This document shows, piece after piece, positions 33,311 through 64,000 of a DNA stretch of 64,000 nt. Source of the DNA: Curvularia clavata (Eukaryota); the NCBI GenBank assembly GCA_023920165.1, contig CP089275.1, positions 992,001-1,056,000 of the forward strand, read 5' to 3'. Each line of letters starts with the position of its first letter. The stretch's first letter is position 1. The notes below the pieces were generated by a model. It was not told the origin of the DNA. It did no database searches and saw nothing but the letters and a program-made list of their open reading frames with translations. The translations under genes were made by a program, and so were the position numbers.

Positions 33311-33332
33311 GGCACGATCACGTGATTGTGCC
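33311..33332. other. Near-perfect 22-bp palindrome centred on an ATCACGTGAT E-box
   Basis: GGCACGATCACGTGATTGTGCC is self-complementary except for one pair. Confidence 0.6.
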
Positions 33333-34810: not shown

Positions 34811-37800
34811 TTAACAAACAATGTCAAGACCGTCATCCACATCCTCTCTCATGGCCACCTCCTCATATAAGCTCTTGAACCAGCTGCCCTGGCGCTCCAA
34901 CAGCTTGTGTGGACGCCCATATTCGACAAGCTGGCCCTTGTTCATGACGACGACCTTGTCGAAGTCAAGTATAGTGTCCAGTTTGTGGGCGACTGAAATG
35001 AGGGTGTGGTGAGGGAAGGTAGAGCGAAGGAGGCGTTGGACATGAGCGTCCGTTGCTGCGTCAAGGCTAGGAGCGTACTGTTAGCAACTCGTGCGTTTTA
35101 GAAAGGGGATGGAATAAGACGTACTTGCTAGTGGCTTCATCCATAATCACCACGCTTGCTTTGTCCTTTCTCAGCATAGCGCGGGCCAAGCAGAACAACT
35201 GACGCTGACCGTGGGAGAAGTGCAGGTCGTCGACTTCGACGTCTAGTGGATGAGCATACTTCTCAACATCTCCCTTGGCCACGATAATGTCCCACAGCTG
35301 GACGTCCTTCATCACGGCCATGATAGCCTTGTCATTTGATTCGCCTAGAGGATCAGCGTTGAGTCGAATGGAACCAGGGAGCAGGTATGCGTCTTGTGGA
35401 AGGCCGATGAGCCGACTGCGGATGGTCTGGCGCGGGATCTCAGTGAGGGGTAGTGAGTCGATAGTGATGCTGCCGGAAGAAAGCTCAATCATGCGGAAGA
35501 GAGAGAGGACCAATGATGATTTGCCGCTGCCGGTTCGGCCAACGATTGCTACCTTCTCACCAGGCTTGATCGAAAGAGAGAAGTCTGAGATTACAGGTTC
35601 GCCAGGACTACATTATTAGCCTACGCTTCTGTAATAGAAAGAGGGAACTTACCGGTGGCATGCTTCGACGTTGTTGAATTCGATCTTACCGGAACTGGGC
35701 CAGTTGGGTGGGGGAACCCGATCCTCGCCCTCCTTATCCTCTGTGATGGCGTCGGTGGTGAAGCTCTTGACCCTGGCTACACTACCAATATGCGTTTCCA
35801 GTTGTGTCCAGAATGAGATCAGTAGCTTAATACTCTGAGAAAAGAGTACAACATTGAGAAGGGCAACGCCCACATACCCAGCGCTGAGCTTTCCTTTCAA
35901 TGTTACGACAAGAACAATGAGAATAGTTGCTACTCCCGCGACCACGAGATCCAGAACAAGAGTCAGCCAACGTTGAATCGCGAAGAGCAGGTAGAAAGGC
36001 CGTTGGCTACGGTCAAGTAAAGTCTTGGCCTTCTTCTCGACATACTCCTGCCATCCGAACGCGCGAATAGTTGGGAGCCCCTCGAGGATCTCGCTGAATT
36101 GGGTGTAGAGCGGAGACTTCGCTTCCAAATCGAGGAAACGAAGCTGGCGAGATGTGCGGAGGTAGAATTTCTGAATGAAGTAGACGCTTATGGCTACAAC
36201 TGGAAAAGCGATAGTGGCATAAGGGGCTGCCACGGCGATAAGGGCCATTTGGCCGACACAAAGAACGAATGTAGCAAAAGTATTCAATGCGGCAAGCGGC
36301 AGTTCCATGTCAATCAACATGAGATCTTGGCTGAAGCGGTTGAGCGTGACACCTGAATCAGTAGTAGAGAAGAATGACATGGGCGAGCTATGATCCGTTA
36401 GCCTATTGCGGTATTTATTTTAGAACATTGAACTTACCCAAGCACTGTGTCCAAGAGTTTCTTGTGGAACGCAACACCGGAACGGGGAACCATAGTGATA
36501 ATGAGCTGCCAGCAACTGACGATGAGGAAGATCATAGCCAGGCCACCGAACGTAGCATAGATACCCAGCCAGTATCCCAGACGCTGATTAGGATGTTCTT
36601 GGTTGTATTCAGCCCACATCTTAACCCAAACTGTAGGGAAAGAGATTCCAAAAATGAAGACTATGATCGAAAAGATGAACACCATAGTTGGTGCCCAGCC
36701 CACTGAGCCAATATAGTAGAAGTAGATGGCGGTATCTCCAGTGCGACGGTTGGTCTCGGCTTGGATTTCCTCTTCAGTGAGTTTGGTATTGTCAACCTGA
36801 CGCTCGGTATATCTGGGTGGAGCTTCGTAGGTATGCTTCTCTGGGGCAAAGTTCCAGTCTGGCTTTGGAAGATTGAAGCCTGATACATAACCGCCAGACT
36901 TATTCAGCTTGTCAAAAGATCCTTGTTCAGAAATCTTTCCGTCTTGGCTGAGAGAAACAACGTGATCGCAGTAAGGCAAGCGTTTTTCTAGAGAGGGTGT
37001 TAATGAGAAGATGTTTCGTGTAAGGGAAAGATAATCACAAACCGGATGATGAAGAGATTAGAACAGTCGTCCTACAACGCCTCAGTAGCCCTTTTCTGCC
37101 AAAAAGACTGTGGAAGATACGGTTCTCTGTCTGCCCGTCAAGACCGCTAAGACAATCATCAAGGATAATAATATCCTTTTGTGCATATACCGCTCTTGCA
37201 AGTGCCTATCCGGTCAAAGAGTCAGTGCAGCTCTAACATGAACGTGGGGGAAAAGTGGGGGGAATCTCACAATGCGCTGGCTTTGACCGCCACTTAGTGC
37301 GATACCCTTGCTGCCGATCTGCGTCTGGTCGCCCTGGGGCAGTTGTCCAAGGTCCTCATCCAAAGCACAGGCCCGGACAACCGACGAATACCAACGCTGG
37401 TCAAAATCTGATATACCGATGATACTTTCCTGCACAGTTCCATTCGTTTGCCACGAAGTTTGGTCACATAATGCGATGCGCAGGGAGGACACCTGCAGGG
37501 AGCCACCCATGACCGGCAATTCTCCTAGCACTGCTTTGAGCAGGGTAGATTTGCCACAGCCTACAGGTCCCACAACCATGGTAATCTTGCCTCGTGGAAC
37601 AATCATGTCGATTTGCTGCAAGATGCCGTCAGGCTGCTTCTCCGCGTCCCACCCAAAATAGCCACCTTCTATGACGATAGCTTGAGAAGTGTTGCACTCT
37701 TTGACTTCGACAGAAAAACGGCTCTTTTGGGAGACAATGGAGCTCTTCTCAGACACACTGCCACTTTCTGGAAGCCACGTGACACTACCTGCGTGCGTAC

Positions 37801-39825
37801 CTGTAAACCTGCGGCTGTCCGTTCGCGGAGCCTGTGCAATGAACTCTTGAATTCGCTGAAACGACCCAACGCCACCCATGAGCGACGAGAGTGCCATAAT
37901 CATCGAACCAAGGGGTTCAGTGAGCAAGGTGAACAAGGAGAGAGAGGTAAAGACAGTAGCGGTATCAAGTGCGCTTTTGCCGTCGCTGTTTCGTGCAATG
38001 ACGGAGAAAACCGCGAATGCTAGGATTGGTGATGCGATGGGCGAGATGTACGCTATCTGGGGTTAGTGTGTGACGGAAGTGATGCAGTAGCGGTTATCTT
38101 ACTGAAACCCATGGTCCAAATCAGCAGCTTACGAAATTTCTTCGAGATGTTGAGCTCGTCAATTCTCAGCTTGTGCAGATCTTCGCGCAGTACTTCTGTT
38201 AGGCCACCCATCTTCACTCCCTTCATGGAGCTAAGCATGGCGCTCGTGGCAGCTATGCGCCGCTCGATGCCCTCGAGCCAAAGTGCTTGTCGCTGCATCA
38301 CCATGCTGGTGGCAGCTATGGAACCGAGCAAGGAAAGGACTGCGATACCAATAGGAATAGCGCATGCCGCGCCCAACTGTCGCTGAAGCAGGTACATCGC
38401 AAGAGCAATTTCTAGTGCATTGGACCAGATCTAGAGGGAAAGAAGATGTTAGTGGATTTTGTGCAAAGTAGATGATATCCCAAATATAGTTACCTCATGA
38501 CTAGTTTCCATTCCGGTCACAATACGTTCAACATCTGCACTCATTAGTGTGATGGAAGAAGCGGTGTCAACATTAGTCAATGCGACTTCGGTGGCTTTGT
38601 TGTATAGCATTGAAATCAGTCCACCTCGCATCTGTGTGATGAAGCGAAACGTCAAATGCATATACTGGCCTGTAGAGACCTGAATGTAATGTCAGTCAAA
38701 ATCCGATGCACCATGGTCTGCTTGGGCGACGAACCGCAATACCAACAAACACAATGACATATGCTCCAATCAGTCCGTAACCAATATTTTTGGCTTGAGG
38801 ATTTTGAGCCTCTTGGGAAAACTTCACAGCCCTGTTGATGAGGAATGGCTGACAAAAGTTGAAGCCAATCAGACAAAGCCGAGGTGGGACGACTGCCAAG
38901 ATAGACCACTTCAACCTTCCCACAGTTGTCGTAAACAGAGCATTCGGGGTAGGATTTGACACTGCAACAGCACCGATGGTTAATAGGCTGATCAAAGTCA
39001 TCAGCTTGAATTTGGACTTACCTCGCGCCCATGCGGAACCGAGCACATGATGTACGTAGTCTGCACGGAGATATTTATCCAACTGAAAGAGATCATCCAC
39101 AGTCAAAGCCTTAGAAAACCCTTTCCTGAAAAGCTCATTGAGCCACCAGAATGAAGCGCGCTTGTAGATGCCACTTGTGGCCTCTGGGGGGCAATCGGCA
39201 TACTCTGGAAGTAGATGCTTCCGTTTGTCCCGACACTCGACTATAGCCAAAAACAACTTGACGGCAAGCCGAGTAGCGAACACGGCAGCCACAAGGCTTA
39301 GATTAGGGCCCAAAGCATAACTACGCGATCTTTCCAGGTCGAAAAAAAAGCTGAAGAAAAGGTATATGTTGAGCAGAAGCGAGGGTCGGATAGAACGCAT
39401 ATGTTCCACGTAAGAGAAGAAGCCTAGCAGTGAGGCACCGACGAAGTTGACAGCCGCAGAAGGTATCTCAACTGGGCTCAAAGATACATTCCGGTTTGTC
39501 CAAAGGACGAGAAGGGCTAGCTCGAAGCCGGCGAAGATGGCCCATCCTATCTGTCATGCCCAGGTTAGCCATGATCATGCTGCGTAAACATAAGACATAC
39601 TAGCTTTGTGTAGAGTAATGTTGACCTTGTAACCTTGGTCTTTCTTCGCCAGAGATAGACGGCTCTGAATGGGACGATAGAGATGATGATGGACAAAGGT
39701 ACAATGGAAAGAAAGATCTCAGAGAAGAGCAGAGTGAAATCGAAACCTCCACGACAGTTAGGCCCAGCATAGGGACCAAAAGTGTCGTCCACTGAGGTGC
39801 AGTTCACATCTCGTCTCGACGCCAT
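34811..39825 (-). CDS. ABCC/MRP-type ABC exporter (TMD0-TMD1-NBD1-TMD2-NBD2); 11 exons (introns 39551-39600, 38962-39021, 38680-38734, 38431-38493, 38053-38102, 37206-37270, 36988-37042, 36388-36437, 35608-35652, 35067-35124)
   Basis: N-terminal DDTFGP...CRGGFDFTLLF motif of fungal ABCC proteins. NBD1 has GPVGCGKS, LSGGQ and IIILDD. TMD2 has FYLRTSRQLRFLDLEAKSPLY. NBD2 has GRTGSGKS, FSHGQRQLFCLARA, VIMDEATS and ISVAHKL. All ten introns have GT..AG ends and keep the frame. Confidence 0.95.
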
Positions 39826-42800
39826 GGCGAGTGTGAATGGACTGGCTGGAGTCGCTCAGTTACCACAAAGATGCATCAAGCAAAGTATGTAGGAAAGAAT
39901 GGGACGTGGGGATTGATAATCTAACGCCCCCCTTATGCTTCAAGGAGTTCTCGCCGATACGATGATCGAGGGAGCCGGTGGCAGAATGGTGCTTTCCTTG
40001 TTTACCTTCTCAGTGGCGCCTATGTGTCTGCACACCAGCACAGGAGGCTTGGACTTCACAGTAGTGTGTGCATGCGGCCCTACAAGCCCAAAGCTCTGCA
40101 ATGCCACAACATCAGTGTTCCACTGGCGCACAGACGCCACAGTTCGCATTTACGAGACAGCCGGTAGGTCTTACATGGTTCCAGTATGTCTAGAATGTCT
40201 CCGTATTTCCGTGTTGATAGCAAAGGATCAGCACAACTCACGGTGATCGACTCTGTACAGTACAAAGGCGGATACGATGTAAGACCCACAGAGAAATTAC
40301 GCGGAGCTGCTATGTTCCCTTTGGTAGACGTAGGCATGAACGGGCCTTTCGAAACCTGGTCTCGGGCCTATGCATGCTTGTTGCATCGGTTGGTAAGACA
40401 TAGAAATTTGACAAGGAACGTGCATGGGCATTCGCATCTGGTTTAGCCGTGTCTTTTGTCCGAGTTTGTGGTAGGGATCGGCGCCACCCCATCGCCCTGC
40501 GTTCCAACATTTGTTAATAGCGGCCCGGGAAGGGGATCCTCAACCTTAATTGCGGGACTACACTGTGACCTTGGCAAGCTGTGGTGGGCGCTTACGGCTT
40601 GTGGCTGTTCGACCACTGCCGTTCGAATGACGATCATGCTCAGTCCGTATAGACATCTAGGCAGGTCGACAGACTTGCCTGTTCCCGTTGGCGTGTACGC
40701 ATGTTGATATCGTTCGTAGGAGAGACTCGAGCCAAGCAATCCGCGTTTGTCTATTACCGAGACCAGGCTAAACATAGCGCCATACCGTCAAAATCAATCA
40801 AAACAATGCTGGAGGCGCTTCTTCGGCCTAAAGTGTACCTGGATGACAATTGCTAATGTGACCACGCGAATGTCAACGGCGAGTATGTGGACGAGAATGT
40901 GCTCGAGGACTTTGATGGATCCTTCGCCTGGACAAGGAAGAAAATTCGCTTTCCCCGGTCTCAACACTACTCATGCTGTACCACCACAGCTAGCTTGAGA
41001 TCCTGAGTAATGGTATAGCCCATGTTTACCTGACCACGTGTCCCGCAAATGTGATTGTTAAAATTTTTTTCCTCAGTCCGTTGGACACTGCATCGGGATC
41101 TGCAATCCCATACATCCACAACAGGACCTGACCTGCAGATCGAAATGCTGATGAGACGACAAGAAGGTGTTAGCGTACGTTTGGTACCAGGATTGAGACG
41201 GCTCAATTTAGAAAATAGCCTAATTCTGGTGTTGTTGGTGCGTGTATGTTTGGAGTGGTAGAAGAAACGCGTTAGTGCTACAAATGTTTTTCTTCTAGAA
41301 GCTTGTTATGTTTGACAACACTTGGAGCTGTTTCAGACGACACAACAAACCAAACGTCGAGCACAGAAAGGGCCAGGGGAAATGACCATTGCACACTGGA
41401 GCCAGTCATCAACAGAATGCCCGAGGCTGTGAAAGGCAAGGGGTTGGGAAGCCGGTGAGCATCGGGCCAAGAAATCTTGTGTGCATTCGAGACCCACAGA
41501 ATTGAGCTGAGTGATTCCAACACAAACTTCGCAGACCGAGAAGACTCTTTGCTGGAGACTTGGTCATGGGCTTGCAATGTGGCCCCGTGTGTAGCAGTGA
41601 TTAATGCAATGACGATCGTAGCAACTTCGATTCATGTGCGGGACAGGTCGGCCACTCCGGGCAGATGGTCCATGATGTCGTGATTAATTTGACTTTGCTG
41701 CCATTGTGCGTATGAGGAGTGTGGCTTGCGTAGCCCGTATGGGTAATGTCAACAGGCTGGGGCTCCTGCAGGCAAATTCTTAGGTGCTTGAAAGGGCCGC
41801 CAGGTCCAAAATCATGCACTGATTCGGCGACCACGCCTTCCAGATTTGACAGCCCAGGCTTGAGACACCTGGTTAGCGGGGCGAAGGATGGGCAACCATG
41901 TTGGGGCGAGATCCAGAATCGATTCACGGAAGCCGGAGCAAGACACAGGCGATACGTCAGCGGTTCTAGGCGTCACGTTATTTTGAGCCCACCATGCCGA
42001 GAGAGCTGGAACTTTTGCGTGACCTGTGCTGACAGTCCACAGCAGACACGAGGAAGGGGGGTCGCAGAGAGACGGGCGCTTAGACTACGGACCGGGGTGG
42101 AGAAGACTAGGAGCAAACAGGCGGCCGGGTCTCTGGGACGCAGCGGATGGAGCCGGCAGATGGTCTGCACTCTATTTCCGTTGCCATGAAGACAGGGGAA
42201 TGAGGGTGACTGGGCAGGCTAGTGGGAGGTGGAGCCCTGAGGGTGCCGTAGCCGTTTTGTGGGCACTAGGGCGAAAATAGGTGTAGCCGTGTCCCCCTCT
42301 CCACCGGACAGCGAAGCCGTTCCCTGTCAAAGCCGTAGGGGCGCTGGTAGCGGGAAGGGAGCATGTAGCCTGTGGGTTCGGGGCACCATTGTGCAGCGGT
42401 ACGAGCAGATGAGCAAAGTGGCGTGCGAGGACGCCACGGAGAAAGCCCTCCGCGAGCGTGAGCGGAAGCGGCTGCGGCAGTGTGAGCGGGGTACGATGGA
42501 GCAGCCCCAGTGTCGCGACATGGCGGACAATGGCGGACAAGGGCGACTGGCTGGCGGGCGGCTGGCTGGCTGGCAGGCAGATGAAATGGCCCCCAAGGCT
42601 CGTTCCCGCATGCGCATCGTCGACTGTGGAGAAGCAATATGATGGACACCATCCCAGTCGATACTAGCAGGCATATGACAATCGCATCTGTCGATCTTCT
42701 CGTGATCTGGGCCAGGCGTTGGTCTATTCCGGCGACGCGACACGACAGATCCCTTACCTGAGCGTCTTGTTGTTTTTCCTGCGCCTTGGCACGCTAGGCC

Positions 42801-43851
42801 CAAAGTGATACACCAGTGACGCGCCTGCAAACCTCACCTTCTCTCCTTTGCCTCTCTTCCCCACCGCCAACACCATCTCTCATCTCCAGCATGTCGCAAT
42901 ACATGAGCGCCACAATATGGATGAAATCCGTCCTCTCAGATTGCCGTAGTGCCTCCGTTGCCGGCATGATGCCGACTTCCTGCCTCTGCATCCAGCCGGC
43001 ATCGCGCCCGTGGCGTCCCTGCTGCTCGACCAGTTGGTAGCCTTTTGCTTTTCTGTGTTGGGAGATTGGCCCCCGGACCACCCTACACTTGGTGCACTAT
43101 GTTTCCCCAGAAGGAATGTCCATGACTTACCACGAGATAATCCAACGACCGATACCGCAATGCTGCTCTCGCTACCACCTGTGCTGTCGATCTCCTAAAC
43201 CCTACATGTCCTTGACCGCCAGAGGGTCCTTGCTGCCCGTCTGCCTGCAAGTACCGGTTGTTTGCCCTCGCATCCCATGCTTCACAAGCGTGTGTGTGTG
43301 GCTGATGATAGACAAAGTACACAGCAGTCGTTCCATCCCAGTCGTGCAGGCTGGGACGTGGCGGCTCAGGAGTCACAAGCTCCGTGTACGTCGCACCACT
43401 CGTTTAGCCTTTTCGAGACAAAATAGCAAGCTCTAAAAAGCGCTGCTCCAACTGGGCGTCCTGCCTCAGGCTATCGCATAATTCCCGTCTCTGACCTTTC
43501 GACGTGAATGATTCTAGTTCCTGCTCATTGTTTCTTGGACTGCCTTGTTCGCCCTTCAGACCACGCCTGCACCCTGCCTGCCCCTCCACTGACCCCTCAT
43601 CTCATCTCTTCTGGTAAGGAACTGTAAATTCGAGATTTTGCTAACCTACAGCATTGCCACATACTATACCACTGGCCTTGGTACGTTCATTCTCCTCCTA
43701 GCAACTGTCGTGTTGAGCGGTCCCAAATGCGATTCGTGCAAAGTTTTCCTCAGTCCGGTTCCCCGCGCTTTTGTTTGCTTCTCTTCAGTCTTGAAGTTAT
43801 TGTTCAACGTAACTCATTGCGTTGCAGGCATTCCATAATCACATCTCGCAA

Positions 43852-46800
43852 ATGGCGTCTAATCACAACCACCAAATGGAGCAATGCCTCCAATCAATTT
43901 GGGCTCATGTCCTCAACTTACCTCACGTACCCCTCGACCAGTCATTTCTATCCTTGGGTGGAGACTCCATCTCTGCGATGCAAGTAGTTGGCCAATGCCG
44001 CAAGGATGGGTTGAGTCTTGGCGTTCAAGAGGTTCTTCGAAGTCGATCCATCACTCAGTTGGCGACTGCAGTAAAAGAAGTAGAGAGCTCTTCATACGAT
44101 CACGAGGAATATTTTGATGAGGAATTCAACCTTTCGCCTATCCAGTCTCTCTACTTCCAACGACCCAACACGGACGGCCATTTTAACCAATCCTTTTATC
44201 TCCGAGTCGCTCGAAAAACCAGTGCAAACGAGTTTCATGCCGCGGTCAATCAGATCGTCACACGTCATTCGATGTTGCGTGCGCGATTCTCCTACTCAGA
44301 GGAACGTGGATGGCAACAGCGTCTCACAAGTAAGATACCCCACGTGACCTCACTTTATTCAAAGCATTCGCCTAGCTCTGCGTTTTATCTATCCTATGTT
44401 CTAGTGCGCAATACTGACCACTATTCAGACGATGTTGAAGGATCTTATCGCTTTCGCCATTCCTCTGTAACTACTCAAGCCACAATTGACGCCTCAATTG
44501 AGGACACACAGCAATGTCTCAATTTTGCCACAGGACCCCTCTTTGCTGCCGACTTCTTCGATTACGGAACTCAGCAATTCGCATTTCTTACTGGCCACCA
44601 TCTAGTTGTTGACCTAGTCACATGGCGACTTTTGTTGGAGGAACTAGAGGAGATATTGAAGGGTGGACAGCTGTTGGCGCCAGCACTTCCGTTCCAGAAA
44701 TGGGCGGAACTCCAACAAGAGCACGCTGAGTCTTTGGAGCTCAGCGATGTGCTTCCAGAAGTAAACGTTCCTCCCATGGATTTTACATACTGGGGAATCC
44801 AACATCAGGATAACACCTATGGCAATGCAAGTCATGCCAGCTTTGAGCTTGACAACGAGCTCAGCTCAGCATTTCTCACCACGTGCCACAATGCTTACAA
44901 GACGGAGCCGGTTGAAGTCTTGCTCGCATCTCTAATACAGTCTTGGTCTCAAGTGTTTACCGACAGACCAATTCCTGCGATATTCAACGAAGGTCATGGT
45001 CGCGAGCCATGGGACTCAACTATCGATATCACCCGTACCGTAGGGTGGTTTACTGCGCTGTCACCCATCCTCGTGACGCCATCTGTAAAATCTACAGACA
45101 CCGTTCGAAAGACAAAGGACTTCAAACGCCGCATTCCGGGGAATGGCCGGCCATACTTTGCTCGACGATGTCTCACACCAGATGGCCGTGAAACCTTCAA
45201 GTCACATTGGCCAATGGAAATATTGTTCAATTATCTTGGCCAATATCAGGTATGTTGACATTTAACTCGGCAGCTGCGAGCTTTTTACTGATACGTTTTC
45301 TAGCAACTAGAGAGGGCGGACGCCCTTCTTCAGCCCTTGGGTACTATGGCAGGTGAGACTGGCAAGGCCGGTGGAACTTCCGACTTTGGACACAGCACTT
45401 GCAGATGGGGTCTTTTCGAGATCTCTGCTTTTGTGTTCAAAGGCCGTCTCAAAGTCGCCTTTACATTCAATCGGGACATGCTTCATCAGGCAAACATCTT
45501 GCGATGGGTCTCCGAGTGCGAGGCCACCATCTCGAATATGATACGCGGGCTGAATGCATTGGATCCAAAGCCAACTCTCAGCGACTTTCCCTTATTGTCC
45601 CTGACAGAGGCTAGTTTCAACTCCATCCTGGACCGGCTGTCAGCTATGGGTATTCCCGACGCCAACATCGAGGATATTTATCCCTGTTCCAGTATGCAAG
45701 AGGGCTTATTACTGTCGCAGACCAAGAATGCTGGGTATTATGCTGCAGCTACACTCCACGAGGTCATAGCGCCAGCGTCTGGAATGTCTTTTGAGGCTAT
45801 TGCCAAAGCTTGGTTGCAAGTTGTGAAGCGGCATCCAGCGCTACGGACTATCTTTGCCGAGAATGTGGGCGCCAAGGGCCTCTACAACCAGATTGTTCTC
45901 AAGGAAATCGAAGCCAATATCATTCGCCTTGAGGCAGCTGACGAAAATGATGCCATCAAGCTCATTGAGCAACAGCGATCCGTTTCTTACAACCACGGTC
46001 AATGCCCAAACCATCGATTCACAATCTGTACCACAGTTGAAGGAAGATTCTATTGCTCCCTAGACATCAGCCACGCGATTATGGATGGGCATTCCATGAG
46101 TTTGATCGCTAGCGAGCTGAGAGACGCATGCAACGGGCAATTGACACTCGACTGCACTCCGCTCAGCGCGTACGTCGCATGGCTTGCCCGTCAGCCAGCG
46201 GAAGCCAGTCTTGACTTTTGGAAGTCATATCTACATGGCTGTGAGATTTCCTCATTTCCTGTCCTTGACGACGGCCTGGGTCAGCTCCGCGAAAAAGAGC
46301 TAGTAACCATCCGTATGGACCTGACCAGTATCAGCTTGACTGACTTTCAGCATTTCTGCAACGCCAATGGAATTACATTGTCAAACGTATTTCATACTGC
46401 ATGGGCAATTACTCTTAGTTGCTATATTGGCAGTCAGGACGTCACTTTCGGATATCTTACGTCTGCACGTGATTCCGACGAGATCGAAGACGTCCAAAGC
46501 ATCCTTGGACCTTTGATCAATACGCTCGTCTGCCGGGTCAACCTCTCCGATGGGTCGCGTTGCCTTCTCGATGTACTGCAGGATGTACAGAGAGATTACA
46601 TGGAGGCTCTTCCACATCGACATACAGCCTTGGCTGACATTCAGCATGCTCTTGAGCTATCGGGTGCCAGTTTGTTTAACACTGCATTGTCCTACCGTCG
46701 CTTGCCTCAAGAGCAAGTAGTTGACGAAATGGGTGTTCGCTTGCGAGAAGTTCGCCCAATCTATGACCCTACCGAGTAAGTCGCAGGACTCAAAGTACCA

Positions 46801-52800: not shown

Positions 52801-55800
52801 GGTGACTGTATTGGTGAAGATGTGCAGCTGTCAACTCGCGACACCATGCTGCTCCTTGGAGCTCAGGATGCCTTGGCCACCGAGATTGTCGATATCTTGG
52901 TAGCTGGACTTTTGGAATCTTTCCGCCACACGTTCCCCGATCGGTCCACGGTGGCAATACACAATGAAGGCCACGGTAGAGAAACATTCAATTCTCGCCA
53001 GGATTTGTCTCGAACAATCGGCTGGTTTTCGACCGCAACACCAATCTATCTTCCTGTACCCGCAAACGAGAACACTGATATCGTCAGCACGATTCAGTGG
53101 GTCAGAGACTTCAGACAGCGAACCCCAGACAAAGGACGACCTTATTTCGCTTATCGTAATCTAACTGAAGCGGGTCAAACACGGCTCGCTAGCCACTGGC
53201 CTGCCGAAGTCTTGTTCAACTATGTCGGAAGGCTGCAACATCAAGATCGCAAAGATGGCATGTTCGCTACCTTGACTGGGTTGGAATCGAAGGATATTGG
53301 AGATCGAGTCCCTCGTCTTGCTCTCTTCGACGTGACCGCTGCCATCTCCAAAGGCGCCATCAAAATATCTTTCGAATGGAACCGTAACATGAATCGACAA
53401 CAAGAGATCCGCAATTGGGTGAAAAACTGTCGACAGACCCTTGTTGATGCTATCGATGAACTTCTGCAAGTTCGCGAAAACCAGAGCCTCAAAGGCTTCC
53501 GAAGCTTACCGCTGCTCTACAATGGCCTTGACAAGATCACGAAGGCTCTACCCGCTGGGTTGACTCTTACTGAAATCGAAGACATCTACCCCACGTCCCC
53601 GATGCAGCAAGGCCTTCTCTTCACGCAATCACGCAATCCGGATCTATACACCTATGAAACCATCTGTCAAGTGAAGTCGACCAATCACAGTGGGGTTGAC
53701 CCTCATCGGCTTGCTGAAGCATGGCAAGTAGTGGTACATCGCCATCAAGCGCTGCGCACCATCTTCATCGACGGTCTTGCTAAAGATGGTTCCAAGGACC
53801 AGATTGTTGTCAAGGAAAAGCCTGGAAGAGTTCAGCTATTCGCTGGCTGCGAGGACAATCGTGTGACGAGTATGCTTCGCGAGCAATCCCTGATTGATTG
53901 CCGCGAAGCGGCGCCACCACATAGAATGACAATCTCAACGACAAAATCTGGAAAGGTGTGGATCAAGCTTGAGATCAGCCATGTGATCAATGACGGCACT
54001 TCAGTCTCCAACATGTTGGCTGACCTCGCACATGCCTATGCTGGGAAACTCTCGCGCGCAGATGCTGGACCACTTTATTCCGATTACATTGAACATGTTC
54101 TCTCCATGCCGCGAGATGCTGATCTGGCCTACTGGAAGACGTACCTTGCAGGAATGGAGCCCTGCTTCTTTCCAACTTTGAACGATGGTCAACCACTTGA
54201 AAGCAAGCCTGCTTCGGTCGTTGTTGAGCTACGTAACATGGACCCGATTCAAGCGTTCTGCAAAAAGAATGGAGTTACTCTCTCCAATGTTCTCCAACTA
54301 ACTTGGGCTTTGACACTGCACTGCTACGTCGGAGCTTCAGACGTATCTTTCGGCCTGGTTGCATCAGGTCGTGATATACCCGTGGCCAACATTGGTTCTG
54401 CCGTGGGATGCTTCATTACCATGCTTTGCGCCCGCTTGGTATTTTCAGATAACACAACCATTGCCGAATTGCTCGAATCCCTTCAGACAAGCTCAACCGA
54501 GGCGCTTTCCCATCAAAACTGTTCCCTCGCTGATGTCCAGCACGAGTTGCAGCTCCCATCTCTCTTCAACACCGCATTCACATTCCAACGCCGAAGCCTC
54601 TCTCGTGATCCCGATCAAATGGCTCTCGTATACGAGGACATGGAAGCTGATGATGCAGGAGAGTACATCGTCACTGTCAACGCAGATGTTCTGGATGACA
54701 GCATCACTGTGGACTTTGGTTACTCGCAAGACAAGATTATTCCTGCCCAAGCGCAGAACATGGCGGACACGTATGAGAAGATATTGCACGTCATTTTGGG
54801 CAACGCTGCCAGCCAGCTTACCGTTGGTAATGTGGATGCATCGACGGAAGGCAGCCTTCGCCAGATTTTGGGATGGAACTCGGAACTTCCTCCTCCTATC
54901 AATCGATGTGTGCACAGGGTCATTCACGATCAAGCTCTCACACGACCCCGCATGACGAAGGCAGTTGAGGGATGGGACGGCTCTTTCACATATCAAGAGT
55001 TTGACAGAGTTACCGACCAGTTGGCAGCTCATCTTCAGTCCATTGGCGTCACAACCGAGACCTTCGTTCCGATCCTGTTCGAGAAGTCGTCATGGGCAAT
55101 TGTCAGCATGATCGCCATCATGAAAGCTGGAGGCGCCTACGTTCCCCTCGATCCCAAGCATCCACAGTCACGACTTCTTGAGCTTATCGGTGACGTTGGT
55201 GCGGAGGTGGTCTTATGCTCCCGTCTGTATCAAGCTACAGCGGCTAAGGTGGCCAAGACTCCCCTTCTAGTGGACCAGCGGTCAATTCGGAAGCTCGCGA
55301 TGCCTGCCACGGGTGAGCTAAGGGCTGCTTCAACTCCAGACAATGCCGCCTACTGCTTGTTCACTTCCGGAACAACTGGAAAGCCGAAGGGAACTATCAT
55401 TTCTCATCGAGCGTTTTGCACCAGTGCGGCTGCCTTCACGCGTCGTATGAACATTAACGCTACGTCACGTACTTTCCAGTTCGCCTCGTATACATTTGAC
55501 GCCAGCTGTATCGAAATCCTTTCTGCACTAACAGTTGGTGCAACGGTGTGTGTGCCTTCGGAAGATGACAGGATGAACAATTTGCCTGGAGCAATCAGAA
55601 AGTTGAAAGCAAACTGGTCGCTGTTGACTCCTTCAGTTCTTGGTACCGTCGATCCAGAGCGTGTTCCTTCCTTGAAGACTCTGGTGTCGGGAGGAGAGGC
55701 TCTCCCTGGACATATTCTCAAGAAATGGGGTAGTAGCACGTACTTCATCAACGGTAGGTACCCGGAAATCTATTAACAAGATTCACTTAATGACGTGGTA

Positions 55801-58800
55801 TTTAGCATATGGACCTACGGAATGTTCGGTTGTGGCAGCTACTGCCTACAAGTCTACGCTAGACCACAAACTTCTCCCATCGGAGCCTGCCACCATTGGT
55901 ACGGGAAGTGGATGTCGATTGTGGATCGTTCACCCGCGCAACCATGACAAGCTTATGCCTGTAGGCTCTGTAGGCGAATTAGTCATCGAGGGGCCTACTG
56001 TTGCTCGCGGGTATCTTAACGAGGAAGAAAAGACTAGGAAGGCTTTCATCACCAATCCTGGATGGGCAGCAACCATTGCTGCGCAACATGGCGCATTCGA
56101 GACTGTTCGCATGTACAAGACCGGCGACTTGGTCCGCTACAATAGCGATGGCTCCGTGAGTTATATTGGACGTAAAGACACGCAAATCAAGCTCAATGGG
56201 CAGCGCGTTGAGTTGGGCGAGATCGAGTATCACGTGAGCCAGAAACTTCCGGACAATGTGCAATCAGCAGTTGAGTTGATTGCACCAAACAAAGGCTCTA
56301 TCAAGGCGTTAGCTGTGTTCTTTGCAGTTGTGCAGCCTACTCCCATCGACGAGGACCAACATGCACAAGCAACGGTGGGCATTGCATCATCCAACGATTT
56401 GCTCCTTCCTCTGGATGACCAGCTCCGCGATATATGCAAAAATGCAGAAAACGGACTCGCTGGTGCATTGCCATCCTACATGATACCTTCCATCTTCATT
56501 CCCGTGAAGAAGATGCCGTGGACATCGGCTGGAAAGTTGGACCGCAACTGTCTACGAGCCTCTATCCAGGATCTCAGTCGGCAAGAACTGGCGATGTATC
56601 GACTCAGCAGCATGGCAACCAAGAAGCAGCCCACCACCGACGCAGAAAAGAAAATTCACAAAGCTGTCTGCTCAGTGCTCAACCTTCCCCCGTCCTCTGT
56701 CGGTATCGATGACAGCTTTGTTGTAAGTGCACACTTTTCCAAAATACTTGTTGAACATTACTAATTAACGATAGCGTCTTGGTGGGGATTCTATCTCTTC
56801 TATGCGTCTCATCACCATGGTGCAGGCTGAACAAATGCAACTATCCTTCGTTGATATCTTCAAATCTCCTAAGCTCTCCGATCTAGCCAAGATCGCCTCG
56901 CCAAACAGCACTACTAGCCAAGTAGAAAAGGTCATACAGCCATTCGAGCTTCTCCACGCTCCTCTCAAAGCAACGGATGTTATTGCTCAGGTTACACAGC
57001 AGTGTCGATTGTCTGAATCAGAAATTCAGGATGTGTATCCGACAAGCCCGCTGCAGGATGCCCTCATCACGCTCACCATCAAGCAACCAGGCGCATATGT
57101 TGGGCAACATGTTTTCGCGCTGCCACAGTCTGTGGACTTGGCCAAGTTCAAGGCATCATGGGAGCAGGCTATCAGAGACATTGATATTCTTCGTACTCGT
57201 ATCATGCAGCTTCCATCCGGGACATTCATGCAGGCTGTACTGAAAGAGGACAAGGTCGACTGGAAGAGCGCCGCTTCACTTCAGGATGCCCAGGCCGAAG
57301 TTTTCAGGACCCCATCACAGATTGGAGGACGCCTGGCAGCCTACACGATTGTCGCAGCCGATTCCAGCCAGCGGTACTTTGTATGGACATTGCACCATGC
57401 TCTTTATGACGGTTGGGGAATTCATTTGATGATACAACGCGTACAGCAAATTTATGCGAAGGGCGCATCCAACATGCCGCAGAGCCCTTACGTTCAATTC
57501 ATCAAATACTTATCCAACGTCGACGACAGCATTTCAAAGGCATATTGGAAAACAAATTTGAGTGGGACAGACGCCTACCAGTTTCCTAGACCGCCATCGA
57601 CCAAGTCAAAGAACACACCAAATGGGCAGACACTGCAACATCGAATGAAGCTCGCCCCCCACAAACATGTCGACGTCACCCCGACCAACGTTCTTCGAGC
57701 TGCTTGGGCTTTGGTACTTGCCGCATACACGAACTGCAATGATGTGGTCTTCGGGGAAACCCTTACAGGTCGAGACGTTGCTGTGAATGGCATCATGGAC
57801 ACCTGTGGACCAGTCTTAACAACCATTCCAACTCGAATAATGATCAACAGAGAAGCAAGCGTTCGTGAACTCCTTCTTGCAATAGCCTCCAACGCCACCG
57901 AGCGGGTACCTCATCAACACTACGGCATTTCTGCTATCAAGGCAATTGGTGACGACGTTGCAGCTGCATGCCAATTTCAGAACCTTCTCGTTGCTCAAAC
58001 TGACCAAGAGGCACTGAACGACTCAATGTGGTCACCCCACGACAATGGTAACCAAAGCAATTTCTTCACTTACCCTTTGGTTGTCGAATGCAAGATTGGA
58101 AAGTCCAGTACCGAGGTTTTCTGGCATTTCGATGCGGACGTCATATCTCCTTGGCACGTCCAGCAACTCGCCTACCAGTTTGAGTCCGTGTTGAACCAAC
58201 TCCAAAACGCGACTCGAGTCAGTGAAGTCAGTGTTTTCAGCGAACAAGACAAACAACTCATCGGAAAATGGAATGCTCGCAAACCAGACCTCGTCGATGA
58301 AACTATACCGGCCTTATTTTACAAGCAGGTTGCTGCTCAACCCGATGCAATCGCAGTTTCGGCATTCGATGGTGAGCTCACGTACGCTGAACTCGCTAAA
58401 CATGCAACGAATTTGGCACATGAACTTGTGGGTCTCGGTGTTGGTCCTGAAACCCTCGTTTTGATATGTCTGGATAAATCTCTTTGGACAATTGTTGCCA
58501 TGTTGAGTATCCTTATGGCAGGCGGCGCCTACGTACCTTTGTCACCAGAACATCCTGCCTCACGGCACAAGCAGATCATGGAAACTTGCAAGTCTTCCAT
58601 CATACTTTGTTCGTTGCCTTACAGATCGCGTTTCGAAAGTCTGGTACAACACGTTCTCAGTATCAACGAGGACAACATACGTCAACTACCCACCTGGAAA
58701 GAACCACTTCCGCACCATATCAAGAGTAGCAACGCCTGCTATGTTCTCTTTACCTCAGGAAGTACGGGAGTGCCCAAGGGTGCGGTCGTAGAGCACAAGA

Positions 58801-61800
58801 ATGTGACTTCGAATGCGATGGCGATTAGCGAAGCAGCTCACATGAGTTCTTCTTCGCGAGTGATGCAATTTGGTGCATTGGTTTTCGATATCTCTGTACT
58901 TGAGATCTTCATCACCCTCATCATTGGAGCCACCGTGTGCGTCCCGTCCGACGAGCAACGCACTACCAATCTTGCGTTGTCATTGAATTCATTGAAGGCC
59001 GATTGGGCCTTTGTCACTCCATCGGTAGCCAGCACGCTTGATGGCCCCCAGTCTGTCCCTACTTTGAAAACCTTGACTGTTGGAGGTGAGGCAATCACTT
59101 CTGAAGTCATCAACAAGTGGGGACATGGAATCCAGTTGATGAATGTTTACGGGCCGACCGAGTGTTGCATTTTCGCTCTCACGAATGACAAGGTCCCGGA
59201 ACAACGCTCCACTACGAACATTGGAAATGTGCTAAAGAGTGGACGCGGATGGCTGACAAACCCTGATAATCCCCACCAGCTTGCGCCTGTTGGTGCGACA
59301 GCCGAGCTGTGCTTGGAAGGGTCATTTGTTGTACGAGAGTATTTGAACGATCCTACAAAAACAGCGGAGGCATTCATTGTAGACCCCGAATTTCTCAAGG
59401 GCTTCTCTCCAGCCGGCGAAAACCGAATCTATCGCACAGGAGATCTTGTGCAATATGATCCCGATGGCTCCATCCATTACAAGGGACGGAGAGACCACCA
59501 GATTAAGCTTGCTGGGCAGCGCATGGAGCTCGGCGAGGTTGAACACAATCTACAATCTGATGACATCGTCCACCAGGTTGCGGTACAGCTGCCGAAAAAT
59601 GGCCCATGTGCCAAGAAGCTTACCGCCGTTGTCAGCTTCACTGCCAGTACTCGAACCGATGCCAGTGCTGAGTGGAATACGCCACTGTTGGATGCAGAGA
59701 GTCTTTCACTGCTGAATCGCGCAAGAGAAACGCTAATGGATCGGGTTCCTCCATACATGGTTCCCATTATCTGGATAGCCGTGCCTCGAATACCGTCACT
59801 TGTATCTACCAAACTTGACAAGAAGCAGGTCGGATCCTGGCTGGAGAGTCTAGACGATGCAACGTACCAGAAGATCATGCAAACGGACGTAAGTGGAGAC
59901 ACGGCTGGAGAAATGAGTGATATTGTTGTTATGCTTCGAGAAATCTGGGCGAAAGCGCTGAATGTGCCAATTGAGAAGGTCCAGCCAAACCGATCGTGGC
60001 TTTGTAAGTGCCTCAAGTGCAGGAATACTGCATTTTATATCGCTAACTGAGACCAGCACTGGGTGGCGACTCCATCGACGCTATGAAACTGCTTGCAAGA
60101 TGCAGAAGTCAAGGCATCAATCTTACCTTGAACCAAGTGCTTGGTGCGAAGTCGCTTGCACACCTTGCTGAGAGGGTCACGTTCTCGGCCACCACAGACC
60201 ACAGCGAGGAGCGACTGGATCAACCTTTCCAGTTGGGACCTATTCAGCGGTTTTATTTTGATACACAGACCACAGAGCCCAATGCTCACTTCAATCAGTC
60301 CTCAACACTACTTCTAACTTCATACGTAGAGCATGAAGCTGTGAAGGGCGCCCTCGACGCTGTTGTTGGATGCCATGGTATGCTCCGCGCTCGGTACTCA
60401 AAGAATTCCGCAGGAGAGTGGCAGCAGCATATCCGCCCCACTGACAAATCCTACGCATTTGAAGTCCACGAAGTCTCTACTGCTTCGTCGGCTATCTCAC
60501 TTGTGGCCAATACCCAGAAAAGTCTCGATATCCAGCAAGGACCGGTTTTCGCTGCCAACATGCTTTTCATCAAAAACAAACAGATACTCTTTTTGGCAGC
60601 TCATCATCTTGTTGTCGATCTTGTAAGTTGGGGGATAATCATACAAGATCTGGAGGACGTTTTAGGATCGATTCATTCAACTCCAACCCTACAAAAAGGA
60701 ATTTCCTTCCAGAATTGGTGCGAGAAGCAAAACGCACATGCGCTGGAGCCCAGCGAACAATCGGCTGTACGAAAGCAACCTATCTCAGTACAGCCAGCAA
60801 ATGTCTCATTTTGGGGCATGGACAAGCGACCTAATCTGTACGGGGATGTCGAAAGAGACGATTTTACTATCTCCAAAGATGTCACTGCTGTTATCAACGG
60901 CCATCATCATGTCTTCAGAACAGAGCTTGTGGACATCTTCCTTTCAGCCATCATACATTCGTTCTCGCGCGTTTTCATCAATCGCAAAACACCAACAGTG
61001 TTCAATGAGTCTCATGGTCGACAAGTCTGGGAATCAAGCAACATTGACCTCTCTCGCACTGTGGGATGGTTTACTACGATGTACCCAGTCACCATCTCTA
61101 TCGGTGATGATGAAGATGAAGTTCTTCACACTATCCGCCAAGTCAAGGATACTCGTGGAAAGATCGCCGATAGTGGAAGGCCATATTTTGCCCATCGCTT
61201 CCTTACAGAACACGGAAAGGAAGAGTTCGCACACCATGCGCCTGTGGAAGTCCTTTTCAACTACCTCGGTCAGCAAGGAAAGTCCGGCAAAGGAAAGTCA
61301 TTGCTAAAACCTACCCAACTTGAGGGAGATGATGACGAGGAGACTGCCGATGTCGGCAAGAAGACCATTCGCATGGCGCTTTTCGAAATTTCGGCAGTAG
61401 TTACTGATGATCAGATTCAGTTCAGCTTCTTGTACAACCGTCACTCGAAGAACCAAAAAGGCATTCGCAGGTGGATTGCTGAATGCCAGCGCACTCTGGA
61501 GGAGATTGCCACTGAACTAGCTGAGCTCAACAAACCTCAGCCTACAATGGCGGATCTGCCTCTTCTGCCCCTAGAGTCATACAGTCGCCTTGACCGTGTA
61601 CTCAAATCCCTACCAAGTGTTGGTATCTCGTCATTCGACCTGGTCGAAAACATCTATCCCTGTTCGCCAATCCAAGAGGGAATGATTCTCAGCCAGATCA
61701 AAGCTCCTGAATCATACTGGTCTTCAACAGTCTTCGAGGTCAAGTCGCAGCGCGGACCAGTCGATGCGAAAAAGCTAGTCAATGGCTGGAGGCAGGTTGT

Positions 61801-64000
61801 CGCTCGCCATCCTGCTTTGCGCACTGTTTTCGTTGACAGTGTTTGCAAGGGTGGTGTGTTTGACCAGATCGTGCTGAAGAACCCAGACTCTGGAATTGTT
61901 ACTTGCACATGCAGCGAGGCTGAACTGTCTACGATGCTGCAGTCGATCAAGCACACTTCACTCAACGGCAAGAAGAAACCGGTTCTTCCGCATCAATCCG
62001 CTGTTATTCAGACCGCTTCTGGGCGTATCATCATGAAGCTCATCTTCAACCACTCTGTGATCGATGGAGGATCCCTTTCAATCATCGAAAACGATCTTCA
62101 AGAAGCCTACGAAGGCCGTCTTTCTACTGAAAGTCCACTTTACAGCGACTATATCAAGTACCTGCGTGAGCTGTCTGCAGATGAGGCCATCGGATACTGG
62201 AAAGCCAAACTTCGTGGTGTCACTCCATGCAATTTCCCTACAATGACACCAGGGGCAAAGAAGCAGAGACAACTAAGGTCGCTAGACATGCGGTTCAGTC
62301 GCTTCGACGAGCTCCATGGACTTGCGGAGAGCTGCAGCGTTACATTTGCCAACATTTTCTTGGCTGCCTGGGCAATCATACTGCGTAAATACACCAAATC
62401 TTCCGACGTATGCTACGGCTACCTTACTTCCGGGAGGGACGTGCCAGTCCAAAATGTCGCTAACGCCGTTGGGGCTTTCCTCAACATATTGGTGTCGCGT
62501 GTCGAAGTCAGTCCGTTCAACCAAGTTCTTCAGATCGTCCAAAAGGTGCAGTCCGACTTCATCGATTCTGCACCCCATCAACATTGCTCTCTCGCCCAGT
62601 TCCAACATGACTTGGGATTGTCCAACAAGGCTCTTTTCAATACTGCTGTTTCCATTCAAAAGCGCAGTGACCTGGATGATGAGGCACCATCAAGATCATC
62701 TATTGAGTTTGAGCAACTGGATGGTCATGATCCCAGCGAATTCGCCATCACAGTCAATATCGATGCTACCCGGAATGATGAGGGCGTGCGATTCACTTAC
62801 TGGGATGATGCCGTGACAGAAGAAGAGATAAAGAACGTCTCAAAGCTGATGTCGACAATCCTTGTTCAAGCTCTGAGCGATATCAAGCAGAGTGTTGGAA
62901 TCTTGGACGGTGTTATCAATGAACCCCTGGTGAACGAAACTAGAGCCCGCCTGGTGCCCCCAACATTACCTGCAGCCAATCCCCAGTCTGCTACGAACCT
63001 TGGGAGCCCGCCGACATCGCCTCTTACACCTCGAATAGCTCTCCCGGATATCTCTGCAACATCTCCTCCACCAGCCCAGACACCAGATTGGAATAACCTC
63101 ATTCGTTCCATTGTCAGCGAGATGGTGCCTCAGATCGTCAATCAGATCGTCGCTCAGAACAAACTTACTGTAGAAACGACATCTTCTACTATCGATCAAA
63201 TGACCACGCAGATGACGGGCCTGCTTAGTAGGAAAGCATCCACATATCATCATCGTGTTCGTGCCAGTCTTGACGGTCAGATCCCTCCCCCAGGCTCCAA
63301 TCGAGCAGAGTCTATTCGTTCTCGGCGCATGAGCCTCGTCAGCAACTCGGAAACCCGAATTCAAACAGCTGCCGACATGGTTGCTACTCTGGGCGCATAC
63401 GCCACCGAGAAATCACCCAAGGTGGCCCCAGACTTTGTAGAGAAGAAACTCCTCACCTTGTGGAGTGAGTTGCTGGAAATGGTAGAAGAGTCTATTGAGC
63501 AAGATCACAGCTTCTTCCAACTGGGAGGCGACAGTATTATTGCTATGCGGCTCGTTGGAGCTGCAAGGGAGGAAGGGCTGTCAATGACTGTCGCTGACGT
63601 GTTCAAGAACCCTACATTTTCCGACATGGCTCGCGTAGTACGTGTCGCGGGTGAAGTTATTGATGAGGTGATGTCCCGAGCTGGTGGCGAATCAGTGATG
63701 GGTGATGGAGATGTCGGAGAGCAGTCTAAGCATCGAGCTCGGGGATCTCGCGGAAGAGCAGCATCTATTTGGAGTGACATGCAGTCCGTTGCATCGGAGC
63801 TCCGAATCGACTTACAAGGACTAGTTCCCAACGATCAAATATCCCAGGATGGATCCGAAGTCGTAAGGAACGACACGAACTTCAGCAAGTGGCAAGGCTT
63901 CTCATCCCCAACTCACGAACGGCCATCATCGCCACGCAAAGCAACATACAAGACGACCCCAATACCCCAAACTGTTCACGAAGGAGTTGAAAGCTCTAAC
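43852..64000 (+). CDS. NPS4: Multimodular non-ribosomal peptide synthetase, NPS4/AbNPS2-like, running off the window; visible domains T-E-C-A-T-C-A-T-E-C-A-T-C-A-T-E-C-linker-T; introns 44330-44428, 45250-45303, 46776-46844, 55754-55805, 56723-56774, 60004-60056
   Basis: Six LGGDS carrier motifs (43954, 48769, 52015, 56778, 60059, 63521). Four A domains (TSG(S/T)TGxPKG, YGPxE, YxTGDL, A10 K-LD). Three E domains (HHLxxD, ExHGRx, RTxGWF, FNY). Five C domains (xHxxxDG). The last exon (60057-64000) is open to the window end and absent from the ORF track. The NPS4 assignment rests on recalled architecture and the divergent ABC gene, not on a search. Confidence 0.95.

Follow-up and report, generated by a model that had tools for sequence, protein, structure and literature searches.

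A Pleosporaceae NPS4 (WARP) cluster in Curvularia clavata whose synthetase appears to lack the first A domain of fusahexin-type enzymes

Clusters for water-repellent peptides (WARPs) pair an NRPS gene with an ABC transporter gene and are marked by alternating epimerization (E) domains; their members include Cochliobolus NPS4 and Alternaria NPS2, and the Fusarium member yields fusahexin, a cyclic hexapeptide with alternating D and L residues (bioRxiv 10.64898/2026.07.13.738209). According to the same preprint, WARP synthetases yield mixtures of sizes and stereoisomers. ChNPS4 is tetramodular in the accessible part of PMC2823734, and the accessible part of PMC12675215 cites NPS4 loss as leading to wettable B. 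maydis colonies. The wettability phenotype of Pleosporales NPS4, which is conserved in major crop-associated genera, has been known for more than 15 years, with no product in the literature searched. Our searches returned neither a product structure for the Pleosporales subtype with four A domains nor any mention of its product or architecture, and the gene is not mentioned in PMC12278603 or PMC9731300; as far as these searches go, the product is undescribed, as a preliminary description of the DNA had held. The same description had ranked the locus as the best candidate for an undescribed system, which does not stand: the two-gene WARP cluster has already been described and named (bioRxiv 10.64898/2026.07.13.738209). 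The cluster itself is ordinary for this fungal group.

Gene structure and transcription

The window, a 64,000-nucleotide stretch of C. clavata DNA, holds an NRPS gene and, on the opposite strand, a gene for an ABCC exporter (Table 1). By sequence and RNA contigs, the exporter gene is divergent, as noted before, intact and spliced: its 10 GT–AG joints occur in RNA contigs (4 of 4 runs), and the frame, open once joined there, encodes two Walker A and two signature motifs (both NBD sets). The NRPS stop codon lies 1.8 kb past the window edge. NRPS RNA contigs of 22.5–22.7 kb, starting at about 42870, agree with the predicted 22,441-nt leader and coding sequence, and the spliced leader has in-frame stops ahead of the ATG. 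The public NRPS model begins at an internal methionine (43978); close orthologues begin at the equivalent of 43852. As hints at transcript starts, NRPS contigs begin at 42866–42873 (4 of 4 runs) and the ABC contig extends to about 42724 (2 runs).

The locus shows the WARP pairing, an ABC transporter gene lying upstream of the NRPS gene. A minus-strand ABC gene lies upstream of the NRPS in 43 of 74 related loci, a set with many near-duplicates in which short contigs or internal modules make up most of the loci without it. Small intergenic open reading frames were considered as genes and dropped; the conserved patches look non-coding because stops and indels lie inside them. Downstream neighbours are a SLAC1-family transporter, an expansin-like gene and an alpha/beta hydrolase, and no tailoring gene adjoins the pair, consistent with the first reading of the DNA.

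Table 1 Features of the NRPS–ABC locus (window numbering; L002:n, positions on a sequence that reaches past the window edge)
Feature	Position	Strand	Details
ABCC (MRP-type) exporter gene	34811..39825	-	11 exons, 1,487 aa; Pfam ABC_tran + ABC_membrane
Intergenic region between divergent ABCC and NRPS	39826..43851	.	4.0 kb, long transcribed leaders
5'-UTR intron of NRPS	43681..43827	+	joint in 4/4 RNA runs
NPS4-type NRPS	43852..64000, on to stop at L002:5836	+	7,201 aa, six coding-region introns
NRPS introns	44330-44428, 45250-45303, 46776-46844	+	seen in RNA
NRPS introns	55754-55805, 56723-56774, 60004-60056	+	from model P0242 and GT-AG ends
T0, N-terminal carrier without A domain	43873..44067	+	Ser codon 43966
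E0 epimerization domain	44101..45510	+	HHLVVDL, EGHGRE
C1	45682..47022	+	SHAIMDG
A1-T1	47080..48882	+	pocket code DNEDCGQIN (acidic)
C2-A2-T2-E2	49027..53421	+	C2 HHALYDG; A2 pocket DAIAFVGCV
C3-A3-T3	53590..56891	+	C3 SHVINDG; A3 pocket DAILVGAVV (Leu-like)
C4-A4-T4-E4	57039..61477	+	C4 HHALYDG; A4 pocket DILFTGVIF
C5	61658..62917	+	NHSVIDG
T5 carrier without A domain	63437..63634	+	flanked by two linkers of about 150-175 aa
CT domain	about L002:4091-5335	+	SHAQYDG
T6*, serine-less carrier-like domain	about L002:5450-5660	+	GGDIMG; past window

Family identity

The NRPS is 83% identical to B. zeicola COCCADRAFT_6918 over its whole length, 78% identical to a protein from Stemphylium called NRPS 4 and 72% identical to Alternaria proteins that likewise begin T-E-C. 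Each of its four A domains has a matching domain in NPS4 proteins: A2, A3 and A4 are each sister to that of B. zeicola P0240 (local support 0.99–1.0), and A1 falls in a trio with the domains of P0240 and Stemphylium P0233 (local support 0.99). These comparisons identify the locus as a Pleosporaceae NPS4 (WARP) cluster and its NRPS as an NPS4 orthologue, bearing out the group assignment made at first sight. Because C. heterostrophus NPS4 (AAX09986), like AbNPS2, is outside our set, orthology to it is drawn from the B. zeicola protein and the accessible part of PMC3554632.

Domain architecture

Translation and a Pfam scan give the complete NRPS as T0-E-C-A1-T1-C-A2-T2-E-C-A3-T3-C-A4-T4-E-C-T5-CT-T6*. 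The complete gene retains the proposed excess of carriers, with the GGDS serine in all six (T0–T5) for four A domains. E domains (motifs HHLxxD, E[G/S]HGR, RTxGWF and FNYxG) follow T0, T2 and T4 only, as the suggested alternation of D and L residues has it; with four A domains, this is the WARP arrangement of three to six modules and an E domain in every other one. This architecture is not a product of chance, being common to 43 of 124 long homologues (a count that includes our own model of the NRPS). In the window, the three C domains that follow an E domain carry SH or NH motifs and the other two HHALYDG, as first reported; the SH type is not exclusive to the former, because the terminal CT has SHAQYDG.

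The downstream sequence adds to the gene this TqaA-like CT, predicted to cyclize, and the serine-less T6*; a scan of the 18 kb past the window found no further A domain that would account for the extra carriers. In the PDB, the CT matches TqaA best (E = 4.5e-31; next protein, 2.5e-17), and TqaA chains make up the top 4 of its 14 matches there. SHAQYDG is present, and T6* serine-less, in 43 of 43 four-A proteins. The CT has the features of fungal macrocyclization domains (a terminal C-like domain, SHxxxDG and relation to the TqaA CT), and a cyclic, hydrophobic, D/L-alternating product is predicted from the CT and the pocket codes.

Over 18 orthologues, T0 and T5 have mean identities of 79% and 91%. 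Of the three E domains, E0 is conserved best (80% versus 66% and 61%), and its HH[LI]V[VI]DL form occurs in at least 41 of the 43 four-A proteins. Both T0 and E0 combine low non-synonymous with saturated synonymous divergence; we set dN/dS aside and used pN alone, because 26 of 28 comparisons showed saturation at synonymous sites. The conservation of T0–E0 argues that the pair is in use and is silent on the residue loaded.

Absence of the first A domain

In A-domain trees, A1–A4 group with the NPS4 group and with positions 2–5 of five-A fusahexin-type enzymes, and no A domain of the window groups with their first, A0; a fusahexin synthetase has five A domains and starts with A0, so the NRPS here would work in a similar manner but belongs to another enzyme type. 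Searched with N-terminal parts of 53 five-A proteins, the stretch from 31.5 to 43.9 kb yielded nothing better than E 0.04, an HMM scan upstream gave no match, and neither did tblastn and HMM searches of the intergenic region for an A-domain remnant. A hidden upstream A0 exon is out, with no sequence match and the spliced leader shut by stops, and the spliced RNA of the locus has no A0. None of 15 other A domains of the same genome groups with A0, and genome searches, among them one for A0-T0-E0, found no separate A0 gene among the best candidates, which alone were scored, with four A-bearing loci outside the comparison. In eight close loci that extend as far as the ABC gene, no A-domain gene lies between it and T0.

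A true loss of A0 in every one of the 43 four-A proteins is a reading that we rejected, because 14 of them begin inside the A0–T0 linker and loci at 55–64% identity have an A domain upstream in four of four cases, often in several pieces; true loss is supported in the closer group only. Within the limits of these searches, the NRPS appears to be a fusahexin-type five-A synthetase minus its first A domain. A0 is absent, yet conservation of T0 and E0 is strong; two carriers must therefore depart from linear loading, and the A domains of the NRPS itself probably serve them.

Predicted product and carrier loading

Our main reading, to which we assign a probability of about 0.65, is that this WARP synthetase, having lost A0, would build a six-residue chain on T0–T5, with the residues on T0, T2 and T4 epimerized and its own A domains loading T0 and T5 out of order. 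By head-to-tail closure, the CT would turn the chain into a cyclic D-L-D-L-D-L hexapeptide that the divergent ABCC is predicted to export and that would make aerial hyphae and spores water-repellent. The preliminary description had credited the D/L geometry itself with favouring stacking and surface activity. The latter claim is weakened, because all-L and alternating heptapeptides were similarly surface-active in simulations, although the authors still speculate on stacking (bioRxiv 10.64898/2026.07.13.738209).

Our best guess is that A2 also loads T0 and that A4 or A3 also loads T5. Among the carriers T0 is closest to T2 (55%), and the suggested role of A2 draws on paralogy and on one pocket position shared by 25 of 25 related proteins, which are not independent of one another. 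The acidic pocket of A1, conserved across the NPS4 family, hints at a residue of the Lys/Orn/Glu type. Pocket codes are poor predictors of fungal substrates, and against the literature codes tried, matches reach at most 3 (A1), 3 (A2) and 5 (A4) of 9 positions. The peptide is predicted to have six residues, three of them D; residue 2 would be polar or basic, residue 4 Leu and the remaining ones hydrophobic. The orphan A domain of Pes1/HcpA was considered as an ancestral T5 loader, an idea that is unsupported because this domain is a degenerate A1.

More tentatively, and on balance doubtfully, we combine a non-linear start on T0 with an aminal residue from A1 and a shifted fusahexin order. NPS4 enzymes without A0, as in Alternaria, Bipolaris, Pyrenophora, Parastagonospora and their relatives, would then start on an A-less carrier; two of six residues would be non-linear, with A2 serving both T0 and T2, giving an undescribed D/L cyclic hexapeptide; and the A1 residue, of the Lys/Orn/Glu type, would end in a ring-fused aminal, as in fusahexin and apiosporin. 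The published fusahexin assignment would shift two places, to Thr for A0, a Pro precursor for A1, Leu for both A2 and A3, and Ala for A4, with T5 loaded by a non-adjacent A domain. The pocket comparison raises doubt about the published module order of fusahexin.

Alternative explanations

Having no dedicated A domain, T0 might carry no amino acid at all, with T0-E0-C1 kept for folding or docking and a ring of five (L-D-L-D-L) or four residues. The family does keep inactive-looking parts, namely T6* and the degenerate A1 of Pes1/HcpA-shaped proteins; however, such truly idle parts are without catalytic residues, whereas T0 retains its serine and E0, the best conserved E domain, its catalytic motifs, and we consider an idle T0 unlikely. 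A free N-terminal carrier is the usual sign of loading in trans, and the genome has many other adenylating enzymes; T0 could receive its residue, possibly a non-standard starter, from the A domain of another NRPS or from an acyl or aminoacyl ligase. That 0 of the 15 other A domains group with A0, and that no such gene lies beside the pair or between ABC and T0 in the eight close loci, make this improbable.

An iterative or dimeric NRPS could give rings of other sizes, as in the hexa- and heptapeptide apiosporins. The mixtures known for WARP synthetases and the position of T5 between long linkers would suit this, but six carriers, a single CT and strict alternation of the E domains correspond to the ring size of fusahexin, the sequence bears no sign of a second cycle, and we give the idea little credence. 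Destruxin B is N-methylated at two residues and includes a hydroxy acid, and its synthetase has N-methyltransferase domains in two modules; the NRPS here has no methyltransferase match and no inter-domain gap longer than 174 aa, an architecture that contradicts this product and leaves it a negligible chance. The proposal concerns A. brassicae AbrePsy1, which we take to be the orthologue of the NRPS here. The accessible part of PMC13665613 states destruxin B for AbrePsy1 and its ABC neighbour but fails to confirm synteny with the destruxin genes; orthologue P0225 carries the database name 'dtxS1', AbrePsy1 orthology fits the A. brassicae 'AbNPS1' of PMC2823734 (accessible part), and PMC4999850 terms AbrePsy1 uncharacterized. 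Out-of-order loading by the NRPS's own A domains is the reading that we prefer, and the locus would offer a compact case of an NRPS that starts on an A-less carrier, useful for the study of such loading.

Comparison with known systems

Cochliobolus/Bipolaris NPS4 and Alternaria AbNPS2 and AbNPS1 (AbrePsy1) have four A domains, as here (accessible parts of PMC2823734 and PMC3554632), and AbrePsy1 has a reported ABC neighbour, as at this locus (accessible part of PMC13665613). The C. clavata enzyme departs from them in details alone: its A4 pocket differs from those of B. zeicola (DALFCGVIF) and Alternaria (DVGFVGGVF), so one residue may differ among these relatives. Fusarium graminearum NRPS4, for which a partial F. 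poae NRPS4 stood in, is likewise part of a two-gene NRPS and ABC cluster, with E domains at alternate carriers, a terminal C-T-C and six residues from fewer A domains; it combines five A domains with a single A-less carrier, compared with four and two here, and Fusarium-type proteins (P0133, P0327) end at the CT, whereas the NRPS here has T6*. Penicillium HcpA and Aspergillus Pes1 (fungisporins), also WARP members, share an A-less last carrier, a terminal C-PCP and a proposed non-linear loading (accessible part of PMC4041764), but are tetrapeptide enzymes that kept A0 and lost middle modules, and A1 is degenerate in proteins of their shape. Apiospora arundinis NRPS4 (apiosporins) belongs to a WARP cluster with iterative module use and Lys tied into a heterocycle (bioRxiv 10.64898/2026.07.13.738209); unlike the NRPS here, it has six modules and makes a heptapeptide.

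Architecture and transcription

The NPS4-type non-ribosomal peptide synthetase (NRPS) and the divergent ABCC exporter gene in the window (G000:C2:992001-1056000) are both intact and transcribed and belong to a cluster family that is already described. Translation shows that the NRPS is encoded on the plus strand by six long frames, which start at 43813 and run to the window edge and in which Pfam matched condensation (C), AMP-binding (adenylation, A) and PP-binding (carrier, T) domains and no methyltransferase domain. With the DNA past the edge, which the preliminary description had proposed obtaining, the full architecture is T0-E0-C1-A1-T1-C2-A2-T2-E2-C3-A3-T3-C4-A4-T4-E4-C5-T5-CT-T6*, where E denotes epimerisation, CT a terminal cyclising C-like domain and T6* a carrier-like domain; no further A domain lies downstream of T5. 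That description had observed the NRPS locus correctly, and the C-domain motifs it quoted held on re-reading of the translation. GGDS is present in all six carriers T0–T5. The final C domain has the motif SHAQYDG, and TqaA chains, which we take to be TqaA CT structures, fill the top four places among its 14 PDB matches. The NRPS is followed by genes for a SLAC1-family transporter, then an expansin-like protein and a hydrolase. Further on (L003 and L004, DNA 8–24 kb past the window) are several short open reading frames without a Pfam match that resemble genes for small, secreted, cysteine-rich proteins, followed by genes for an MFS-like transporter, a fungal transcription factor and a protein with a metallo-beta-lactamase fold.

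The public model of this NRPS (P0242, 7,159 aa) matches the window exon by exon but takes as its start an internal Met that lies downstream of the T0 serine, and thereby hides the first carrier. Close orthologues begin at the equivalent of ATG 43852, giving 7,201 aa. Transcript contigs from four public runs in two studies, spliced and presumed to be RNA, were examined over 33000–52900. For the NRPS they reveal three introns in the coding region and one in the leader; for the ABC gene they reveal ten, and its exons, joined at the RNA joints, form an open frame of 1,487 aa. The NRPS contigs (22,515–22,690 nt, 5′ end at 42866–42873) approach the 22,441 nt of predicted leader plus coding sequence; a single transcript thus plausibly covers the whole gene, and an upstream A domain would not fit. 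Leaders predicted from contig ends are about 2.9 kb with 44 ATGs (ABC) and 835 nt with 14 ATGs (NRPS). These ends, which cannot prove transcription starts, imply a compact two-way promoter. Conserved intergenic patches, with an invariant 14-base core near 40550, are probably regulatory.

Features of the locus and other sequences noted (window coordinates unless prefixed)
Feature	Position	Detail
Serine-rich open frame	27590-31405	1,271 codons, no Pfam match
ABCC exporter gene	34811-39825	minus strand
Conserved non-coding patches	40431-40606, 41722-41774, 43241-43296	conserved at 75-86%, in at most 3 of 7 close loci
GC-rich patch	42724-42870	ABC and NRPS contig ends ~150 bp apart
Start omitted from P0242	43852-43977	plus strand
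T4 motif	60071-60079	GGDSID; GGDSIA in B. zeicola
T6*	L002:5450-5660 (beyond window)	GGDIMG, without serine
Very large NRPS	G000:C4:4308914-4345585	open frame of 13,064 codons, 10 A-domain matches
NRPS pocket codes		A1 DNEDCGQIN; A2 DAIAFVGCV; A3 DAILVGAVV; A4 DILFTGVIF

Distribution of the four-A subtype

A search with the Pyrenophora homologue as query listed 120 of 567 matches. The window architecture occurs in 43 of the 124 long proteins analysed, and 49 have the same architecture with one additional A domain in front (A0); three more five-A patterns came from a separate analysis, among them the unrelated P0345, excluded from later comparisons. The closest relative among the matches listed is B. 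zeicola COCCADRAFT_6918 (83% identity); a Stemphylium protein named NRPS 4 shares 78% and Alternaria proteins 72–73%. In FastTree trees (147 A domains of 33 selected proteins, and a second, smaller set), each A-domain position forms a separate group; window A1–A4 group with positions 2–5 of the five-A enzymes, beside B. zeicola, and A0 has no window counterpart. Judged by these homologues, the source fungus is probably a member of the Pleosporaceae close to Bipolaris. Anthostomella pinea is a Sordariomycete; a protein so labelled (P0269) nests within the Pleosporales group at every A-domain position, through mislabelling, contamination or transfer.

No A-like sequence was found upstream of T0 at the locus, and 15 further A domains or fragments of them, drawn from nine loci of the genome, were all placed outside the A0 group. 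A genome search with an A0-T0-E0 protein returned only the window NRPS and known paralogues; these genome searches scored only the best candidates, leaving aside four A-bearing loci and the greater part of a very long NRPS. Among 74 metagenome loci, none of the 15 at ≥67% identity shows an A domain before T0; in eight of these, two of which are probably duplicates, the sequence extends to the divergent ABC gene, 3.5–4.0 kb upstream. An A domain precedes T0 in all four loci at 55–64% identity, 14 of the 43 four-A models start within the A0–T0 linker, probably because their annotation is truncated, and in the larger tree four five-A proteins are interspersed among those models. For these reasons, the sequences support A0 loss for a closer group only, comprising 24 proteins and the window NRPS, presumably of mostly Pleosporineae genera. 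Mean identity to B. zeicola across 18 orthologues is 79% for T0, 80% for E0, 66% for E2, 61% for E4 and 91% for T5. Non-synonymous divergence from four metagenome loci, with synonymous sites mostly saturated, is 0.08–0.15 (T0), 0.09–0.21 (E0) and 0.18–0.25 (E2). By its sequence, T0 is no relic.

Proposed carrier loading and predicted product

Six carriers, three epimerases and CT would yield a D-L-D-L-D-L ring. As the enzyme has four A domains and the searches turned up no partner, the simplest view is that A domains of the enzyme itself would load T0 and T5. Our preferred loader of T0 is A2, since A0 and A2 group as sisters (support 0.96–0.99 in both trees), T2 is the carrier nearest to T0 (55% identity) and an A0-type Gly occupies one A2 pocket position in 25 of 25 A0-less versus 14 of 51 five-A proteins, weak evidence as the proteins are related.

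For T5 the evidence is split. Fungisporin ends in D-Val, L-Val, which, with the degenerate A1 that is the spare A domain of Pes1/HcpA-shaped proteins, suggests the last A as loader. The accessible text of PMC10967133 likewise has the last A loading the final carrier of fusahexin, the D/L-alternating cyclic hexapeptide of Fusarium NRPS4. Against this stand the last three pockets of partial F. poae NRPS4 (P0133): DAMLVGAVV and DAMLVGAVI each match the tentoxin Leu code at 7/9 positions, and DIGFVGGVF the HcpA Val code at 7/9. Read as Leu, Leu and a small aliphatic residue, they would agree better with D-Leu, Leu, D-Ala than with Thr, Pro, Leu as published, in conflict with the published module order; the odds that this order is shifted seem a little better than even. 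In the available part of PMC7256872, fragments from Neonectria and Alternaria are listed with identical pocket strings; this backs our extraction of codes, not substrates.

Window A3 is Leu-like (7/9 positions). All 43 four-A proteins have an acidic A1 pocket, and in the majority of five-A proteins this pocket is of DNED or DNAD type; acidic A-domain pockets are known to bind basic residues. This would fit the Lys heterocycle of apiosporin (bioRxiv 10.64898/2026.07.13.738209) and the Glu-aldehyde route favoured for the fusahexin bicyclic unit in the accessible part of PMC12340964.

Relation to known systems

The preliminary description had predicted a new system; the prediction mostly restates fusahexin chemistry, and the cluster family is already described. 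Water-repellent peptide (WARP) clusters combine an NRPS having E in every other module with an upstream ABC transporter and include C. heterostrophus NPS4 and A. brassicicola NPS2, with products reported in the main text for Penicillium, Aspergillus, Fusarium and Apiospora only (bioRxiv 10.64898/2026.07.13.738209). In the accessible portions of other sources, the Fusarium locus is termed a two-gene cluster (PMC11677700), NPS4 has four A domains and occurs in all Cochliobolus genomes compared (PMC2823734, PMC3554632), and B. maydis colony hydrophobicity is ascribed to Nps4, not hydrophobins (PMC12675215). Destruxin B, to which the available text of PMC13665613 ascribes the A. brassicae AbrePsy1 locus, is contradicted as product by the lack of methyltransferases. 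The accessible literature, which excludes most papers behind subscription and with them the first descriptions of fusahexin, AbNPS2 and NPS4, yielded no structure for a product of the four-A subtype. What remains of interest is the product of this widespread subtype and its initiation without A0. T6* carries the serine-less GGDIMG in all 43 four-A proteins and is also serine-less in most five-A proteins, whereas Fusarium and Stachybotrys proteins lack such a terminal domain.
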